Positions 12,081-36,222 of a stretch of DNA of 51,192 nt are shown piece after piece; the stretch's first letter is position 1, and each line of letters starts with the position of its first letter. Source of the DNA: a virus (taxonomy: Duplodnaviria; Caudoviricetes); the IMG/VR virus record IMGVR_UViG_3300025132_000054, positions 1 to 51,192 of that record. One strand, written 5' to 3'. Both the position numbers and the translations under genes were made by a program. Below the pieces are notes generated by a model. The model saw only the letters and a program-made list of their open reading frames with translations, searched no databases and was not told the DNA's origin.

Positions 12081-13968
12081 CGACTACTCCCCCCAGGTCA
12101 TCGCTTGAAAGTCTACGGTTCCATCGGCGGTTCGTTCTGATGCCGGTGGCCCGTGTCATTGTGCGTAACACAGGTGCGGAGGGTGGGCGAAGATCGCCGT
12201 ATCTTTTTGTGAGAGTAAAGAGAAGTTCTTGATAACGAGCAGTGCTGTAGTCAGACCGGGCCGTCTGCCCCATGTTTTCATACAAGTACACCATCGCCTT
12301 TTCGATCAAGACGTTGGTCGCTTCTGCATGCACTAGAGGAACGTCTTGGTCCGCCGTCAACTCTTCAGGACGGATGACGCCTCGGATGTCAACGACATAC
12401 CGCTGGTCAGGCTTAGGGTAAAACTGGATTGTTTGATACCCGTGAATGTCCCGCAGCCTGCGGCTGTAATCAGGTAGAAACTCACCATTGTCGTACCACA
12501 CGCCCGAGTTGTTGCTATCTGCACGGAACTCTGACAATAAATAAAAAGCGTTGTCCGAATCTAGCTGAGACTGCTGGAGGCCGTCAGCGGCGTTCTCAAG
12601 CAACCCGTAGTCGTTCATGTTCGCGTCAATGCGACGACGATAGATGCGGATGTAAACACCGCTTTGATCAAGGCTCTGCCTGCTGTGAGACCCAAACTTA
12701 GTCAGGAAGCCCAGTGCATATGTGATGTTTGGAAGCGACAGCTTGATTGCCGCAAACTCATCCCCGACTCGAGCAACGGTCATTGCGTTTGATACCGGAG
12801 ACGGTGGAGATTCAAATCGTGGTGTTCTAAACCTATTTCGCGACGGATTGCCGCCAGATGCCGACGTGCTCGCGCTTGGAAACTGGGTGGTGCTATCAAT
12901 CGTTAACGGCTGGGCAAAGCCCTCCCAACTGCCGAGGCCTGGGAGTTGGAACTCTACATCCCGCTTGCCCCAAGAGTAGGTCACGCGGTACTCAAACGTG
13001 CCCGCAGGTTCAGGACCAAGCCACTTGTTATCAATCGCGGTTGCGCCAGCATCGCTGGCAAGGTCAGGCCCGGTGTGAGAGCCTGCGCTTGGGTCAATGT
13101 TGACCTCGCCCCGTCTTTTTGCCTGCTCCCTCGTAATGTCAGACGAGCCGGGTTTTTTTAAGTCGGGAATATTTTTAGAGTCAAAAACATTTGGATTGGT
13201 CAGGGCTGGAGACGCTACTGGAGCAGAGCTCGGGCCGCGCATGTGGACATGACTGCGGCGAAAAATGACGCGGGGGATGCCCGAAGCAACCTGTGACGGG
13301 GGTCCGTCAAGTTGCAGGTCTTCGGATTCTCGTTGACCAAAAACATCCAAAGGATAGTTGTTGGTATTGTCGCGAAGGCGGGCAGTGCTCAACTGAATCA
13401 AATCGTCGGGCAGCGCGTAGGCTTCAGTAAAAATACGGTACTTGAATCCGACAAACCCGTCAATGGTTGCGGTGCCCGAACCATTTTGGATGTCCCAAGG
13501 TGTGGCCAACGTAAAATAGTAATGACTGTCTGTGGCACTAAGCCATACAGAACGGATTTGATTACGGATTTTTGTTCCGTCCGCAAGCGTAATCTCAATC
13601 ATTCGACCGTCCCAAGAACGATCGTACTTCCACGCGGTCAGCTCGTCAGCATTAGCCGCTTGCTGAGTCTGTGTGTAAGTAGTCCGCCAAGTCCACGGGT
13701 CTTTCGTAGCCGGAGCGCCTGGTAGAGTGTTTGCGCCAGCAAGTTGGACGCGGTCGCCAGCCACGCCCTCTTTGCCTGCTTTAGACTCGACATCCGGCTC
13801 TGTGGCCAAATGCACCTTGGACTCAAAGAAGAGAAACGGAGCTTCTAAGGCTAACTGATTGTAGGCCCTATTGATGAAGCTATTAGCGCGAGAGATCGCC
13901 TCAGACGACTGGGTCGGTGCCCAGTCCGCCTGGGCGAACATCGCGTTCCGAATCTCTTTGAGATTCAT
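12073..13968 (-). CDS. head-tail adaptor-like protein with a large insertion
   Basis: N-terminal 'MNLKEIRN...FINRAYNQL', 'YALPDD' and C-terminal 'IQFYPKPD...DVPLVH...LIEKA' are adaptor-type motifs; lies after capsid/decoration genes. Confidence 0.55.
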   Translation of the reverse strand: MNLKEIRNAMFAQADWAPTQSSEAISRANSFINRAYNQLALEAPFLFFESKVHLATEPDVESKAGKEGVAGDRVQLAGANTLPGAPATKDPWTWRTTYTQTQQAANADELTAWKYDRSWDGRMIEITLADGTKIRNQIRSVWLSATDSHYYFTLATPWDIQNGSGTATIDGFVGFKYRIFTEAYALPDDLIQLSTARLRDNTNNYPLDVFGQRESEDLQLDGPPSQVASGIPRVIFRRSHVHMRGPSSAPVASPALTNPNVFDSKNIPDLKKPGSSDITREQAKRRGEVNIDPSAGSHTGPDLASDAGATAIDNKWLGPEPAGTFEYRVTYSWGKRDVEFQLPGLGSWEGFAQPLTIDSTTQFPSASTSASGGNPSRNRFRTPRFESPPSPVSNAMTVARVGDEFAAIKLSLPNITYALGFLTKFGSHSRQSLDQSGVYIRIYRRRIDANMNDYGLLENAADGLQQSQLDSDNAFYLLSEFRADSNNSGVWYDNGEFLPDYSRRLRDIHGYQTIQFYPKPDQRYVVDIRGVIRPEELTADQDVPLVHAEATNVLIEKAMVYLYENMGQTARSDYSTARYQELLFTLTKRYGDLRPPSAPVLRTMTRATGIRTNRRWNRRLSSDDLGGVVDG

Positions 13969-29331: not shown

Positions 29332-31824
29332 TCAAGCCTCCGGTTCAGTCCATCCCATCGACGACGCCATCTTCTTCATAGGCGACTGTGACGCTCGGTC
29401 TATGTGCTTGAGGGTTATTCCCCGCCACACTCGGACAGACTTTCGGTCGCCGTTGAAGTTTATCTTGGTGACGGTAGAGCGGAAGTCCCGCTCTGAAAGC
29501 TGTCGGCTGAACAACGAGTAGCTCTGCGGGCGCTGCTTCATGTCCTCGCACCACTCGACGTAATCGAGGTAGATTTGCTTCTTGGGCACAGACTTTCCTT
29601 TGCCGAGAACGCACCTATCCTCCATGTATTCGGCAAGAACGTCCATCTCCTCACGGTACTCGTTGGTGGCCAGCCTGACCTTGTCGGGAGGTCGCAACCC
29701 GTTTTTCTGCCAGTCAAGACAGCCCTCGACGAGGCGGTTCAGAATGCCTGGGGCTTCTTTCTTCAGCTTGTCGAAGAGGAACGGGTCTTTCTTGTCCGGT
29801 GTGATTTTCACCCGCCACGGAATCCTGATGACGCGCCGCCAGATGCCTTCGTCGTTGCCCTTGATGATGGGGCGATGGTTCGCTGCGATGCACAGCTTGT
29901 GACTGGGCATGAACTGGTAAAAGTCTTTGCGCATCTTTCGGGCTTTGACAGGGTCGCTTCCGGTCAACTGCTTGATCAATGCTTCAGCAAACGGCTTACC
30001 CTTCTCGACCTCCGCGTTAGCTACAAAGCGTGCGCCCTCAAGGTCTGCGATTTCTGTAGGGTGAGCCTCATTGTGCTTCGCCATCAGGAGACCGGGTGCT
30101 CCTTGAATGGCGTACTCACCAAGAACGTGCATCAGCGCGAGCAGCGCGGTCGTCTTTCCGTTGCCGCCAGTGCCCTCCATGAAGAGAAGAACTTGCTCCG
30201 TAACCAAGCCTGTAAGGCAATAACCGAAGAACCTGTGCATGAAGTCTACCAAAGAGGTATCTCCTTGCATAGCGTGCAAAATGAAATCGTCCCACATGGG
30301 ACACTTGGCGTCCGCGTCCCATTCTACCGGACTGATTTTCGTGATAAGGTCGGTTCTATCGTGTCCACTTAGTTTCCCTGTTCGCAGGTCAAGAGTTCCG
30401 TTAGCGACGTTGAACTGCCAAGGGTCTGCATCGAGAGCCGCTGCAGCAATGCATGCCTCGGTCTCGGTTGACGCCACCGACACCATCGCGCTAAGAGACC
30501 TCGCGCTTTCACTGCGAAGGGCGTGCTTCTCTAACAAGCGCCGCCGCTGGCGATCGGACTCGGAGTTGGCCTCCGCAAAAATAAGTCCCGTCGTCAGTTT
30601 CGCACAACGATGGACGGCCCCATCCGTATCAAGTTTCCAACGAGTGTCGTCGAAGAAATACCATGCGTCGTGAGTCGCGCAGTAACGTATACCGATGCCA
30701 AAGGCGTGAATCATACGCTTCGCGTTCCCCAGGTCCGTAAGGTTGTAGTTTCCCGTACCCGATGGAGCGAGGTCTGTTGGCGATCGCATTACAAAATGCT
30801 CGCCCGCAAGGTCTTGCAAGTTCTCCCAACCAAGGCTGCGGCCCTGACCGTCCTTCTCATGGCCCTTGCAGTTCTTGTGCAGGCAACCAGCAGCGATGCC
30901 GCCACCGTTGAACTGCACGACGTAGGCACTGCGGTCGGTATGCGTCTGGTCCCACGGGCAGACATCGAAGACCCAACGATTGCCCTTGCCTGCCCAAGGC
31001 TCTGGACCAGTCAGCTCTGGAAAATGCTTCCGTAACCAGATGCCGAGACGAGCTTGCTCGCCGCTGGAAAGTTTATCCCGCTCATTCTCCTCTGGAGAAT
31101 CAGCCAAAAGTTCATGCAGTTGCTGCTGCTGAACAAACTTTTCCGGCGGATTTTTTGAGATAACGTGCGCGAGCGGCCACGGCCTTTCATCCGAGTCAAC
31201 ACCCTTTCTCGAATATGTACCATATACCTTCCATATCCTAGAGGGGTTGTAGACGGCTTGGTCAACCACCGCGATTGCGTCACGGCTGAAGCGGAACGAG
31301 AGGAAGTCTAGGATGCGTTTGTGAATCTCGGGTGTAAGCCCTTTGCATTTGTACATGAGGTGGTAGCCGTTGCCGGAATCTGCGAAGAGGGGGTCAGGCC
31401 ATCCCTTCGATTCTAGAAACGAGCGCACCCTGCCCACGATTGAAAGGGCTGCTTCCTTCTCTTGCTTGTTGCTAGAGGTGTTCACCGGGCGAGAGGGGTC
31501 GATGTCAATCAGGAGCCAGTTGATCTCCGTGACATCGCGGTCGTTCGCGCTGCTGCCACGTTTCGCGACCCCAATCATGTTCCTCTCGGCTTTTGAGATC
31601 GTCTTACGGAGCGGGTTGGGCGTGAAGTAGACCCCCTTAGCCCCTTGTGTGCAGAGAAATGCTGCTGCCTCGGCCAACGCTTCATGGTCATCGAAGAATC
31701 CATTGTACGTTCGGAAGCCATCCATCGTGTGGACGCCCAATGCACGGAGTTCAACCACCTGGTCAGGGACGAGCACCATCTTTAGACCCGCAAGAATGCG
31801 GTCCTTTGCAGTCATATTCGCCAT
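29332..31824 (-). CDS. primase-helicase (AEP-like primase plus D5/P4-family SF3 helicase)
   Basis: 'LIDID' and 'DSGNGYH' primase motifs; 'LTDLGNAKR' D5_N; Walker A 'GTGGNGKTT'; 'IKQLTGSD', 'GIWRR'. Confidence 0.9.
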   Translation of the reverse strand: MANMTAKDRILAGLKMVLVPDQVVELRALGVHTMDGFRTYNGFFDDHEALAEAAAFLCTQGAKGVYFTPNPLRKTISKAERNMIGVAKRGSSANDRDVTEINWLLIDIDPSRPVNTSSNKQEKEAALSIVGRVRSFLESKGWPDPLFADSGNGYHLMYKCKGLTPEIHKRILDFLSFRFSRDAIAVVDQAVYNPSRIWKVYGTYSRKGVDSDERPWPLAHVISKNPPEKFVQQQQLHELLADSPEENERDKLSSGEQARLGIWLRKHFPELTGPEPWAGKGNRWVFDVCPWDQTHTDRSAYVVQFNGGGIAAGCLHKNCKGHEKDGQGRSLGWENLQDLAGEHFVMRSPTDLAPSGTGNYNLTDLGNAKRMIHAFGIGIRYCATHDAWYFFDDTRWKLDTDGAVHRCAKLTTGLIFAEANSESDRQRRRLLEKHALRSESARSLSAMVSVASTETEACIAAAALDADPWQFNVANGTLDLRTGKLSGHDRTDLITKISPVEWDADAKCPMWDDFILHAMQGDTSLVDFMHRFFGYCLTGLVTEQVLLFMEGTGGNGKTTALLALMHVLGEYAIQGAPGLLMAKHNEAHPTEIADLEGARFVANAEVEKGKPFAEALIKQLTGSDPVKARKMRKDFYQFMPSHKLCIAANHRPIIKGNDEGIWRRVIRIPWRVKITPDKKDPFLFDKLKKEAPGILNRLVEGCLDWQKNGLRPPDKVRLATNEYREEMDVLAEYMEDRCVLGKGKSVPKKQIYLDYVEWCEDMKQRPQSYSLFSRQLSERDFRSTVTKINFNGDRKSVRVWRGITLKHIDRASQSPMKKMASSMGWTEPEA

Positions 31825-32649: not shown

Positions 32650-33068
32650 ACATCAGCGGGCGAGACGCGCCGGACCTGTGACCCCAAGATGTCGAGAGGG
32701 TAGCGACGGCACCGGCTGCAGCGATTCGGGCAACATAGGGGGGACGCCCTCACATGTAGAGAGGCAACGACGCCCCCTTATGCGGTGGTCTCGGTCTCGT
32801 TGCGTCGATTCGGGTCCGATTCATTGCCCATAGGTACGGTTCCGCACGATTGGAAATCCCCCCACATGTCACGGTCACAAGCTCCACAAAAATGCGTACG
32901 ACGTACCTGGTACGTCTAATATTTTTTTCAGCCGAAAACGAAGGTTTAACCACAGCTTTGGCTCCTGGAGCATCAACCGTTGCCCCTTTATATGGTGGCG
33001 CGTTTGGCGTTCAGTCCGTTATCTGTCTCGCGTGGGACACATCAACCAACCCACGGAGGACACATCAC

Positions 33069-33566
33069 ATGCTTGAATCAACCGTAACCGCCGCCGCTTT
33101 CATCGCCGCCGCTAACAAGATTTCCCACGACCTTGCGGCCCTGCACGGGTGCCCCGACTTCAAGGCCATCAAGCGATACATGCGTCAGTATGCGTCACGG
33201 GATTTCGCCACGGGTCACAGCGGCACGATGGCGTTCGAGGTGTTGAGCGCGTTTCACTCCATGTCATTGGAGGACAAAAAGACCGCATCGATTGAAGCCC
33301 TTACGGTGTACCGTGACGCAGCCAAGCAGGCGGCGGAAGACCTCGACGCTTACCAAGTGAAGGCGGCGGAGTTGTTGGTTCGTGCTCTGAATACCCCCGA
33401 GCACCGCAGCCCGAGTATGATTGACCGCTTGTGTCACGAAGTGCAGCATCACGAAGCACTGCGCCCCCGTTTCGCTGAGGTGGTTCTTCAGTTTGATGAA
33501 CTCCTATTCGCGATGAACAGTCCCGAGGAGGTGGCCAAGATGTACGCGGAACAGGCCGAAGGCTAG
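33069..33566 (+). CDS. early hypothetical protein
   Basis: start revised to MLESTV after the GGAGG RBS; 165 aa. Confidence 0.7.
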   Translation: MLESTVTAAAFIAAANKISHDLAALHGCPDFKAIKRYMRQYASRDFATGHSGTMAFEVLSAFHSMSLEDKKTASIEALTVYRDAAKQAAEDLDAYQVKAAELLVRALNTPEHRSPSMIDRLCHEVQHHEALRPRFAEVVLQFDELLFAMNSPEEVAKMYAEQAEG

Positions 33567-33578
33567 CGCGGCCCCTTC

Positions 33579-33637
33579 ATGGGGTCGGGTGCTATTGCGG
33601 CACCCCTGACGATGGCCATCGCAGGCCGAAACCCCGT
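33579..33637 (+). ncRNA. hammerhead ribozyme, type III (extra U after CUGACGA)
   Basis: AUGGGGU-C^ GGGUGC[UAUUGCG]GCACCC CUGACGA U GGCC[AUCGCA]GGCC GAAA CCCCGU; predicted cut after GUC at 33586. Confidence 0.85.
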
Positions 33638-33665
33638 TAGCACATCAACCGAGAGGACACACCAC

Positions 33666-34661
33666 ATGCACACATCAACGCACACCCTTCTAGACCTTGC
33701 CGCCGACATCAAGACCGACGCCCTTGAATCGATCGAGGCGTTGACGCGCCGCCCTATCTCTTGCCCCGCCATCGCTGGGAGCATTGACTTTCTTCGGGGA
33801 TGGCTGGAAGCTGACAGCGCCACCCGCGCCGCCGCTACGCTGGGCGAGGTTCAAGACCTAGTCAACGCGGCGTCATGGTTCGCGGATTCCGAAGCGTGCG
33901 CGATTGGGGAATACGTCAAGTGGAGAGGCGTTGACAACCGCCACCAGTTGCAGGGGATGATGGAAGAACTGGAAGCGATGAGAGGAGCCGTCAAGATGTG
34001 GGACCGGTTGGAGACGCACGCGGCTAGCGTGCTAGAGGAACGTGCAGACGAACCCCCGACCGCTCCCCTATCGACTCCGCCCACCGTGCCAGAGGTCGCC
34101 GCCGCTTTTTGGTCTGATGTTCAGTTCGTTAGCACTCACGACGCCCTGACACGGGTGGACACCTTGAACGAGGCCGAAGAGAACCCGTGCATCGATCATC
34201 TCGCCGACCTTATCGATGCGAATGAGTACATGTTGGACGCCTTGAGCCGTAGCTATCTAGACCGTGGAATCGTACTAGAGTGGGACGCCGAGAACCAAGA
34301 ACAAGCCGACTTGTGGAACGCCGCGTGGACCCTAGCCAAGAACACCGGCTACGCCAAGGACATCGGAGAACTCCACGACATGTGCAGCGCGCTCGGCCTG
34401 TGTCCTGACTATGAGGTAGCATACGACGCCAAGATGCGCGGTGACGCGCTGTTCTTCTTCGCTCTTCTGCACGGTGCGTCTACCTCTTACACCGTCCGCA
34501 ACATCGCCCAAACGTGGAGCGATGCCGAAGACCTTGGGTGGTCGAACCCTCTCGGAGATGTCACCGACGATACAGACCCTGCAGCGATTGACGCAGCCGA
34601 GCGCAGCGCGCTGGACTTCATCGCCGCCACGGGTCGCCGCCTTGTAATCGACGGAGAGTAA
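33666..34661 (+). CDS. early hypothetical protein (acidic)
   Basis: start revised to MHTSTH after the GAGG RBS, since the longer N-terminus would overlap the ribozyme; 331 aa. Confidence 0.7.
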   Translation: MHTSTHTLLDLAADIKTDALESIEALTRRPISCPAIAGSIDFLRGWLEADSATRAAATLGEVQDLVNAASWFADSEACAIGEYVKWRGVDNRHQLQGMMEELEAMRGAVKMWDRLETHAASVLEERADEPPTAPLSTPPTVPEVAAAFWSDVQFVSTHDALTRVDTLNEAEENPCIDHLADLIDANEYMLDALSRSYLDRGIVLEWDAENQEQADLWNAAWTLAKNTGYAKDIGELHDMCSALGLCPDYEVAYDAKMRGDALFFFALLHGASTSYTVRNIAQTWSDAEDLGWSNPLGDVTDDTDPAAIDAAERSALDFIAATGRRLVIDGE

Positions 34662-34745
34662 CCGCGAAGGGGGGCGCTTCCCCCCGCACCGCATCACGCG
34701 GCGTCACTCCCTGCAAGGATGGGGGTCAAGGTCCACGGACGGACA
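34662..34745 (+). ncRNA. unassigned structured intergenic RNA (multi-hairpin)
   Basis: GGGGGG/CCCCCC, CCGC/GCGG, CUCCC/GGGGG and GUCC/GGAC stems; occupies the same slot as the hammerheads. Confidence 0.35.
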
Positions 34746-34767
34746 TCAACCAGAAGGAGCAAGAGCA

Positions 34768-35151
34768 ATGACAACAGCAACAACAACAACAGCAACAGAG
34801 CGAGCCGAAGCACTTGAGACCCTGCGAGGGATGTTCAAGGGAAAGCGCACTCGCAGCGCACTTACGGTCTACTGCATTCTGCGGCACGTTAACCGCATGG
34901 GTACGTCTCGGGTTATCGATCTGCTTGTGATTCGTGACGGGGTTCCTTTCCGCATCTCTTGGAACGTCTGCAAAGCACTAGGCTACACTTACGACAGGAC
35001 GCACAGCGGGGTGCGTATCAGGGGCGGCGGAATGGACATGGGTTTGGCTATCGTTTACAACCTGTCACGGGCAATGTTCCAAGGTTCCCACCTGCGTCAA
35101 TCGTTCCACCGCAAAGATAAGGGCTACGTCCTCCGGTGTGAATGGCTCTAG
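34768..35151 (+). CDS. conserved-type phage early hypothetical protein
   Basis: AAGGAG RBS; 'TVYCILRHV...GGGMDMG..IVYNL' motif recalled from phage hypothetical proteins. Confidence 0.75.
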   Translation: MTTATTTTATERAEALETLRGMFKGKRTRSALTVYCILRHVNRMGTSRVIDLLVIRDGVPFRISWNVCKALGYTYDRTHSGVRIRGGGMDMGLAIVYNLSRAMFQGSHLRQSFHRKDKGYVLRCEWL

Positions 35152-35216
35152 GCTGGTACACTGAAGAGGCCACAGCAGGCCGAAACGGGGGCGCGTGCCC
35201 CCGTCTGTACCTAACC
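35151..35216 (+). ncRNA. hammerhead ribozyme, type I
   Basis: GGUACA CUGAAGA GGCC[ACAGCA]GGCC GAAA CGGGGGC[GCGU]GCCCCCG UC^ UGUACC; predicted cut after 35205. Confidence 0.95.
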
Positions 35217-35230
35217 AAAGGAGACGCCCC

Positions 35231-35728
35231 ATGTCCGAAGCACTTTACCCCCACGATACACGGTGGAAAGCATTCAACCCGAGGACCAACACGGTAATCG
35301 TTGGGCGTGTTCGCGACGTTACCGACTTCACCGTTCACCTGCACACCGGCAAAGATGTACAGGTACACGAGGACATGGACCGCGACGTGCTGTTATCGCT
35401 CAAGCGCTGGCACCTCGCACCGCACCTGTCCACCGCCCGCCCTGTCTATGCGCCGCCCGCCGCTATCGAATGGCTCACCCCCGAAGAGGTGGTCGCGTCC
35501 TGTTACACAGGTGCCACCGGTTGCCCCAAAGGCGAGGCGCTAGACGCTGACCTTGAAGACCTCCAAGCCCGTATCGATGCGGGCGACCTTTGCACGCTGA
35601 CCGGCTCCGGCTCGTGCCCTATGTCCGGTGGGTCGGTGGTCCTTATGCGTGATGTCTGGTTGCGCCTCTCGGACACATCGCGTGCGATGCTGCTGCGCTT
35701 CGACGCTGGATACCTTGACGGCGTCTAG
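35231..35728 (+). CDS. early hypothetical protein
   Basis: start revised to MSEALY after the AAGGAG RBS; 165 aa. Confidence 0.7.
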   Translation: MSEALYPHDTRWKAFNPRTNTVIVGRVRDVTDFTVHLHTGKDVQVHEDMDRDVLLSLKRWHLAPHLSTARPVYAPPAAIEWLTPEEVVASCYTGATGCPKGEALDADLEDLQARIDAGDLCTLTGSGSCPMSGGSVVLMRDVWLRLSDTSRAMLLRFDAGYLDGV

Positions 35729-35790
35729 CCTGATGCACTGACGAGACCGGAAGGTCGAAACGGGGGACGCTCCCCCGTCTGCATCTAAGC
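35728..35790 (+). ncRNA. hammerhead ribozyme, type I
   Basis: GAUGCA CUGACGA GACC[GGAA]GGUC GAAA CGGGGGA[CGC]UCCCCCG UC^ UGCAUC; predicted cut after 35779. Confidence 0.95.
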
Positions 35791-35802
35791 ACTGGAGGAC
35801 AC

Positions 35803-36042
35803 ATGAAGGGAACCACGTTTGAGGTGGTCACGTTTACGCTTCCCATGTATTGGGCGTGTTATCTTATCAACGGTGACGCGACAGGACTGGAGGACGGAGA
35901 ACAAGAACAGATAGACGCATGGCTCGCGTCGGAGGGCAATCCGTACTTCGTTGACGTAGGCGAGCACTACTTCTCTTGGCGCAATGACGCGACCCGACTG
36001 GGCGGCAACGTGGCGGAGTACACCGCGCACCTATACACCTAG
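35803..36042 (+). CDS. small acidic phage protein
   Basis: GGAGG RBS; 'LPMYWACYLINGDATGLEDGEQEQID' motif. Confidence 0.75.
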   Translation: MKGTTFEVVTFTLPMYWACYLINGDATGLEDGEQEQIDAWLASEGNPYFVDVGEHYFSWRNDATRLGGNVAEYTAHLYT

Positions 36043-36068
36043 ACGCCGCGCACACAGCAGCGTCACCG

Positions 36069-36097
36069 CGTCGAGGCTTCGGTCTCGGCGTTTTTTT
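36069..36097 (+). terminator. intrinsic terminator
   Basis: CGTCGAGGC-TTCG-GTCTCGGCG hairpin followed by T7. Confidence 0.9.
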
Positions 36098-36222
36098 GTG
36101 CCTCCTATGGAGCGCCTGACGTTCACACCCTGCACCTCTAGCCCCGCCCCGCCCTCGCCCTCGCTGTGGAATCGTGCCCGCACTGAGCTCGAGCTGCCGT
36201 CAAAGCAAAACCGGGCGAGCTC

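Follow-up and report, generated by a model that had tools for sequence, protein, structure and literature searches.

Segment 34667-34745 of the phage genome analysed here, in the spacer that precedes a gene for a 127-aa protein, carries, with a probability that we put at roughly 0.9, a member of a genuine new family of structured RNAs that is uncatalogued with respect to Rfam 15. The family as collected has 24 members, from 21 IMG/VR phage contigs (one of them with two copies) and two MAG contigs; the members are 75-100 nt in size and share about 25 near-invariant bases in their junctions and loops. Its placement and conservation suggest that the RNA is most likely a cis-acting element of mRNA processing.

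The window, by which we mean the whole stretch of DNA under analysis, is an entire IMG/VR virus record of 51,192 bp, estimated to be 96% complete. Its minus strand carries the structural genes, while a run of small genes follows on the plus strand after a D5-type primase (29332-31824), in an operon spanning 32850-36042 (Table 1). The spacer studied here runs from the TAA of the 360-aa gene to the ATG of the 127-aa gene (34662-34767, 106 nt). A preliminary description had called it the one spacer without a hammerhead, which is true of the operon's long spacers and not of the window as a whole, and had placed hammerheads in the neighbouring spacers, where a scan with three topologies does find a clean type I copy in each of the next two. 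Hammerhead 2 scores 21.9 bits (E 0.021) with RF00163 (gathering score 34) in a search of 1.25 kb, and hammerhead 1 goes unreported by Rfam even at E<=10 on the same 1.25 kb; both being below the gathering threshold, a standard Rfam annotation would list no ribozyme for this phage. A DNA search of a phage isolate collection with 33500-36100 gave no match, and protein and DNA searches for host inference returned remote or methyltransferase matches only.

Table 1. Features of the operon and of the spacer RNA in the window, and hammerhead loci of the 127-aa gene family
Feature	Position	Strand	Remarks
238-aa gene	32850-33566	+	
360-aa gene, phrog_21393	33579-34661	+	stop TAA 34659-34661; motif starts 6-8 nt further on
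AA flank 5' of P1	34667-34668	+	base adjoining P1 is A in 15/15 members scored; preceding base A in 12/15
P1 hairpin GGGGGG-CGCUU-CCCCCC	34669-34685	+	RNAfold; without U tract
J1/2, invariant GCA	34686-34688	+	23/23 aligned rows and L265
P2 hairpin CCGC-AUCAC-GCGG	34689-34701	+	stem sequence and loop length variable in family; loops/inserts 3-20 nt
J2/3, invariant CGU then C	34702-34705	+	fourth base A/C in 22/23 aligned rows and in L265
P3, 6 bp ACUCCC/GGGGGU, 9-nt loop L3 UGCAAGGAU	34706-34726	+	family L3 consensus UGCANNGAU; closing C-G invariant
J3/4 CAAG	34727-34730	+	variable across family, 1-8 nt, mostly 4
P4, 4 bp GUCC/GGAC, 6-nt loop L4 ACGGAC	34731-34744	+	family L4 consensus ACGNAC; closing CC/GG invariant
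RBS AAGGAG and ATG of 127-aa gene	34754-34770 (RBS 34754-34759, ATG 34768)	+	outside folded part
127-aa gene, phrog_12365	34768-35151	+	ATG 34768
Type I hammerhead 1	35155-35211	+	intact CUGAAGA, GAAA, GUC; stems I/II/III 6/4/7-8 bp; predicted cut after C35205
165-aa gene	35231-35728	+	
Type I hammerhead 2	35732-35785	+	own scan; intact CUGANGA, GAAA, GUC; stems 6/4/7-8 bp; predicted cut after C35779
79-aa gene, DUF6926	35803-36042	+	
Intrinsic-terminator-like hairpin (36068-36091) then T run	36068-36101	+	operon end; terminator scan
Type II hammerhead loci of the 127-aa family			L009, L026, L031, L036, L039, L040, L044, L045, L050, L055, L069, L104, L130, L133, L143

RNAfold gives exactly the four consecutive hairpins claimed for the spacer in the preliminary description, here named P1 to P4. 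Folding of the single sequence is at chance level (z of 0.01 and 0.04; 97 and 100 of 200 dinucleotide shuffles fold as well), so that the case for an RNA rests on the comparison of homologues. P1 is not terminator-like, because the U tract is missing and GCA and P2 come next, and the scan found no terminator-like site within 34662-34767 and no promoter-like one in the motif; ARAGORN gave no match to a tRNA-like fold. A small ORF through the spacer (34655-34771, its TGA overlapping the ATG at 34768 as ATGA) was rejected as a gene: it lacks a start codon, and the differences between the window and its relative G001, read by eye, are mostly non-synonymous substitutions, while the stem pairing is kept. 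We take the open frame to be fortuitous, a by-product of the conserved RNA sequence.

Homologues were collected by several routes. A single-protein viral search with the 127-aa protein found nothing; the protein has few close homologues, and an alignment-based scan led to 160 loci of its gene family, only one of which holds the motif. The first homologous spacer, L002 (nhmmer, E 4e-5), lies in G001, a syntenic relative with 63-81% nucleotide identity across most of the genome, in which the motif is placed between different genes than in the window. The pair differs by compensatory changes at one base pair of P2 and four of P3, with conserved loops. Just 5' of its motif, G001 has a strong RBS and then a two-codon mini-ORF, ATG GAC TAG (L002 481-499). 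With covariance model R1, neither the 160 loci nor 50 whole viral records yielded a further copy, and the exact pattern AGGTCCACGNACGGACA yielded one true match, in G001, and five chance matches. Further members came from exact-pattern scans built on conserved blocks and filtered with covariance models R1 and R2, namely L176, L177, L187, L182, L194, L195, L181, L191, L179, L197 and L189, and later L239, L241, L240/L249, L254, L259, L245 and L265; L203 and L204 are the members from the two MAGs. There is one copy per phage except in G054, the record of L177, which has two (13887-13960 and 35458-35530), the second of them (L226/L238) being more degenerate, with AGA for GGA in L3, one mismatch in P3 and a longer P2. 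The matches L168-L171 of one pattern were discarded as chance matches in coding sequence. A stretch of L170 (14554-14575) and L171 (1625-1646) reads GCGUC-AUUCCC-UGCAAGGAU-GGGAUU followed by CACGGACG and mimics P3, L3 and part of L4; since the two differ at third positions, we take it to be coding and hence probably a chance match.

The family consensus runs A, P1, GCA, P2, CGU-M, P3 (with loop UGCANNGAU), about 4 nt, and P4 (with loop ACGNAC), where M is A or C. Covariation was assessed on an alignment of 23 rows, 22 of them distinct sequences. Across the distinct sequences 98.6% of the 348 cells in P2-P4 form standard pairs, compared with 74.8% in column shuffles (none of 500 attains 98.6%) and 38-44% when the partners are slid along the alignment. 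Compensatory changes are seen in 11 of 16 pairs, the remaining five being invariant; they affect all four variable pairs of P2, five of six pairs in P3, and two of four in P4, where the other two are invariant. An alignment fitted to a model is biased toward structure, yet the slid controls fall far below the observed pairing, and no search pattern specified the stems. Covariation among homologues, which the preliminary description had named as a test, is therefore present in P2, P3 and P4, and with it the earlier claim of a distinct structured RNA in this spacer holds up.

P1 lies outside the covariance model. By script, it is a hairpin of 6-7 bp that abuts GCA with a spacer of 0 nt in 15 of 16 members, and in the sixteenth, L226, it is seen by eye. 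Helix lengths are nearly fixed in P1 (6-7 bp) and P3 (6 bp), each with one shorter or mismatched case, and range over 3-7 bp in P2 and 4-5 bp in P4. GCA and CGU never vary, though two of the search patterns did not require them and a third left GCA free as well. The letters of L3 and L4 were built into the patterns, so their invariance is partly imposed and to that extent circular; L4, whose letters three of the four patterns required, is the least independently tested part of the motif. One pattern left L3 positions 1-3 free, and the only variant that it turned up was UGU (L265), a change that recurs in a metagenomic contig, X3 (34714 C>T). Tabulated by eye from the alignment, positions N5/N6 of L3 and N4 of L4 show no Watson-Crick pattern of covariation.

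The first bases of L3 (UGC) complement the GCA of J1/2, and the first bases of L4 (ACG) complement the CGU of J2/3; a compact double-pseudoknot fold is predicted on these grounds. The complementarity suggests that both pseudoknots would be of the H-type, with the first three bases of each loop stacked on the loop's own stem. The UGU variant of L3 in L265 and X3 keeps a G.U pair with GCA. Because the pairing letters are invariant, the pseudoknots lie beyond what covariation can address.

The members are carried by many unrelated contigs of uncultured tailed phages; each lies in sense orientation between co-directional genes and starts 3' of a stop codon. An ORF ends 15-75 nt upstream of the core and the next ORF downstream is on the same strand in all 15 first-round members, with the downstream start codon no more than 15 nt from the end of the core match in eight of the 15, and the flanking proteins of these 15 are unrelated, two close pairs excepted. 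Later members show the same placement by eye, L245 being truncated where its contig stops. The fold does not sequester the RBS in the window. DNA contigs of three public runs offered two additional glimpses of the motif; a search for RNA runs containing the phage found none. The X3 contig, from a marine metagenome, lacks 34473-34654, the last 182 nt of the 360-aa gene, and has five other letters instead; from 34655 onward it retains the motif with three substitutions, one of which converts a U.G pair of P3 to C-G. Since this contig lost the upstream DNA and yet kept the motif, the element behaves as a module. The boundary of the recombination or deletion coincides with the 5' edge of that module. 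The X2 contig matches 34710-34745 only, and its different upstream sequence has GCA, a P2 of GGUGC/GCACC, and CGU.

No Rfam 15 family matches the motif down to E<=10 on 136 nt, all ribozyme models included, which is also the outcome of the model search proposed in the preliminary description, and none matches at the motif in 14 and a further five other member loci. The RAGATH motifs, reportedly described by Weinberg et al. in 2015 as structured RNA candidates that lie near twister and hammerhead ribozymes and showed no cleavage in tests, resemble the present family in discovery logic, in genomic setting and in having conserved structure beside ribozymes. PMC6765202 refers to motifs of this kind and does not use the name. 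The motif matches none of the RAGATH families in Rfam 15, a comparison beyond which the unnamed candidates of 2015 lie. Literature string searches with the loop sequences returned unrelated primers only, supplementary motif lists being outside their scope.

The function that we favour is suggested by the hammerheads of this operon and of related phages. The preliminary description held the position of the spacer to be equivalent to that of hammerheads, and this is borne out both within the operon and at the orthologous site elsewhere. Loci of the 127-aa family contain 16 type II hammerheads in 15 of the 160, all on the gene strand and several directly flanking the gene. The family, which shares the conserved ILRH...GGGMDMG...VYNLS, has the look of a ribozyme-associated gene. 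In L045, L069 and L104 the homologous gene is preceded by a type II hammerhead, placed after the upstream stop codon and before the RBS, exactly as the motif is in the window; L044 and L130 have theirs just 3' of the homologous gene, the place of hammerhead 1 in the window. The motif shares with hammerheads its sense-strand orientation, a place few nucleotides after a stop codon and few before an RBS, a size within 55-95 nt, GC-rich hairpins and the operon itself. It differs in having no CUGANGA/GAAA core and no three-way junction, and in consisting of four tandem hairpins with other invariant letters.

In L241 and L245, near-identical contigs that lack tblastx similarity to the window, the motif is followed on its own strand, 1.05 kb away, by a type I hammerhead (L241 2821-2880 and L245 10762-10821, both minus). 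Counting the window's lineage as well, 3 of 24 member loci (two lineages) have a hammerhead on the motif's strand no more than 1.1 kb away, as against 0 of 56 control loci taken from chance hits (449 kb), a contrast that is weak because L241 and L245 count as one lineage. Within the stretches of DNA covered, the hammerhead scan found none in 13 other first-round member loci, in the whole G001 record or in 15 of 17 further member loci, nor were Rfam ribozymes found in 14 member loci. The association of motif and hammerhead appears real but thin, resting on two lineages.

We hypothesize that the motif acts in cis on a polycistronic early transcript as a point of punctuation or processing, in the manner of the two downstream hammerheads. 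A processing role is the reading that best suits the fixed helix lengths, the near-invariant junctions and loops, the independence of the flanking genes, the intercistronic placement on the sense strand and the positional interchange with hammerheads. The processing would most likely be done by self-cleavage as an undescribed class of ribozyme; the upstream mRNA would be left ending in or near a stable hairpin, and the downstream mRNA would gain a defined 5' end beside a free RBS. Because the motif sits where related phages have hammerheads, it is a good candidate for a self-cutting RNA, and cleavage by a new ribozyme class is the single most likely mechanism, one that we propose tentatively and at clearly less than even odds. 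The fuller picture, that of a new ribozyme of about 80 nt with four hairpins and a double pseudoknot, interchangeable with hammerheads and cutting early mRNAs into single-gene pieces, may be correct, and we consider it rather unlikely to hold in all its parts. The motif shows what is generically expected of a ribozyme, namely conserved structure, covariation, and invariant junction and loop bases. Against self-cleavage stand the four side-by-side hairpins without a closing helix, unlike most small ribozymes, the dependence of the pseudoknots on invariant letters, the partly imposed invariance of L3 and L4, and a z near 0.

Few classes of natural self-cleaving ribozymes are known. The review PMC6765202 describes different classes of ribozyme in bacteria and phages as lying in clusters, a tendency exploited in discovering the latest ones, twister-sister, pistol and hatchet, beside hammerheads and twisters. 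The window offers a setting of the same kind. If the motif cleaves, one more ribozyme class would be added and the idea of interchangeable phage RNA 'punctuation' for operon transcripts would be strengthened; if it does not, it would still be a new and widely scattered phage RNA module. The same review records that other motifs from the vicinity of ribozymes failed to cleave when assayed (PMC6765202), which makes for a modest prior for cleavage here.

Those earlier motifs also speak for a serious, if doubtful, alternative to self-cleavage, in which the motif is a non-catalytic module of processing or stability whose fold is recognised by a nuclease of host or phage, or by another RNA-binding factor, that cuts or stalls there. 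On this view P1 would shield the upstream cistron at its 3' end, and the downstream cistron would be protected at its 5' end by P2-P4. Early mRNA of phage T7, with its intercistronic RNase III sites, provides an analogue for a module of the nuclease type. The positional evidence, the order of stop codon, motif and RBS between unrelated flanking genes, fits such a module equally, as do the strong GC hairpin P1 directly after the stop codon in all members examined for it and the tandem arrangement of hairpins without a closing helix. However, RNase III requires longer stems than the 4-7 bp seen here, and an RNA so rich in GC offers little single strand for RNase E. The module would moreover need a host factor common to contigs as diverse as these; about 25 near-invariant bases and fixed helix lengths suggest a tertiary fold over a simple nuclease site.

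A second alternative, to which we give little credence, makes the motif a binding site for a trans-acting protein that controls downstream translation, the version examined being of the CsrA/Rsm type. The SELEX consensus for CsrA, RUACARGGAUGU, has a 100% conserved GGA in a hairpin loop (PMC4347634), and the window's L3 with its closing bases, CUGCAAGGAUGG, matches 8 of the 12 consensus positions with GGA in the loop. L4 (ACGGAC) also has a GGA, about 20 nt away and followed by the RBS, and both MAGs with a member encode CsrA (2/2). About two thirds of the members resemble CsrA/RsmA sites in having GGA in a hairpin loop (L3, often L4) 5' of an RBS. The reading nevertheless fails, because GGA is absent from both loops in several members: in L239, L241, L245, L240, L249, L254 and L259 (7 of 23 aligned rows) L3 has UGA or CGA and L4 is ACGAAC or ACGCAC, the L3 of L226 reads AGA, and L4 is ACGAAC in five of the first 16 members. 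With seven to eight members lacking GGA in either loop, we reject a CsrA site as the conserved function. Further, an invariant G replaces the 100%-conserved first A of ACA, the invariant GCA and CGU and P1 (the rest of the core) are left unexplained, the RBS is not sequestered, and no CsrA gene occurs in the window or in 12 phage records with a member. A site for some other protein keeps the low probability given above.

It is likewise improbable that the motif is a cis-acting transcription element, such as an antitermination site like HK022 put, or a ligand-sensing riboswitch. The put RNA of HK022 modifies RNA polymerase so as to give processive antitermination, and put RNAs are tandem stem-loops, as is this compact, highly conserved sense-strand fold inside early operons. 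Against a transcription element, no terminator-like site is found in or just after the motif, which ends at the RBS; a riboswitch is disfavoured because the downstream genes are unrelated, and no Rfam match points to one.

That the motif is a divergent or permuted form of a known ribozyme, twister-sister or hammerhead, is very improbable and largely refuted. The twister-sister version arose in the preliminary description, which saw a likeness to twister-sister segments in the words GGCGUCA, UGCAAG and CAAGGUC. The resemblance does not survive comparison: RF02681 gives no match at E<=10, whether the query is the whole window, 1251 nt or 136 nt, and in the 23 aligned members GGCGUCA and CAAGGUC, two of the three words, vary freely, only CGU and UGCA being conserved. 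The order of the words in the spacer is, as we take it, the reverse cyclic order of the canonical one, which circular permutation of twister-sister cannot produce. What the motif has in common with twister-sister is a phage-like neighbourhood near ribozymes and conserved hairpin loops; it lacks a multi-stem junction closed by P1/P2. Toward the hammerhead point the CGU-A/C of J2/3, which resembles the NUH triplet, and a hairpin preceded by an A-rich flank (GAA in 8 of 15) in the manner of GAAA-stem III. Yet CUGANGA is missing from 33612 to 35161, as the preliminary description had stated for the spacer, where neither Rfam nor the three-topology scan scores a hammerhead; on 1251 nt Rfam reports hammerhead 2 alone, and no Rfam ribozyme lies at the motif in five other members. 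Nor do the Rfam covariance models for twister, pistol, hatchet, HDV-like, hairpin, glmS, VS and hovlinc match at the motif. Functionless chance hairpins in a GC-rich spacer, to which the equality of single-sequence folding energy with shuffles might point, are refuted by the compensatory changes seen among 24 homologues whose contexts are unrelated, and retain a negligible probability.

One further observation concerns the gene downstream of the motif, whose start (34771-34800) is an ACA/ACG-rich run that encodes TTATTTTAT; its homologues likewise begin MTTAT...
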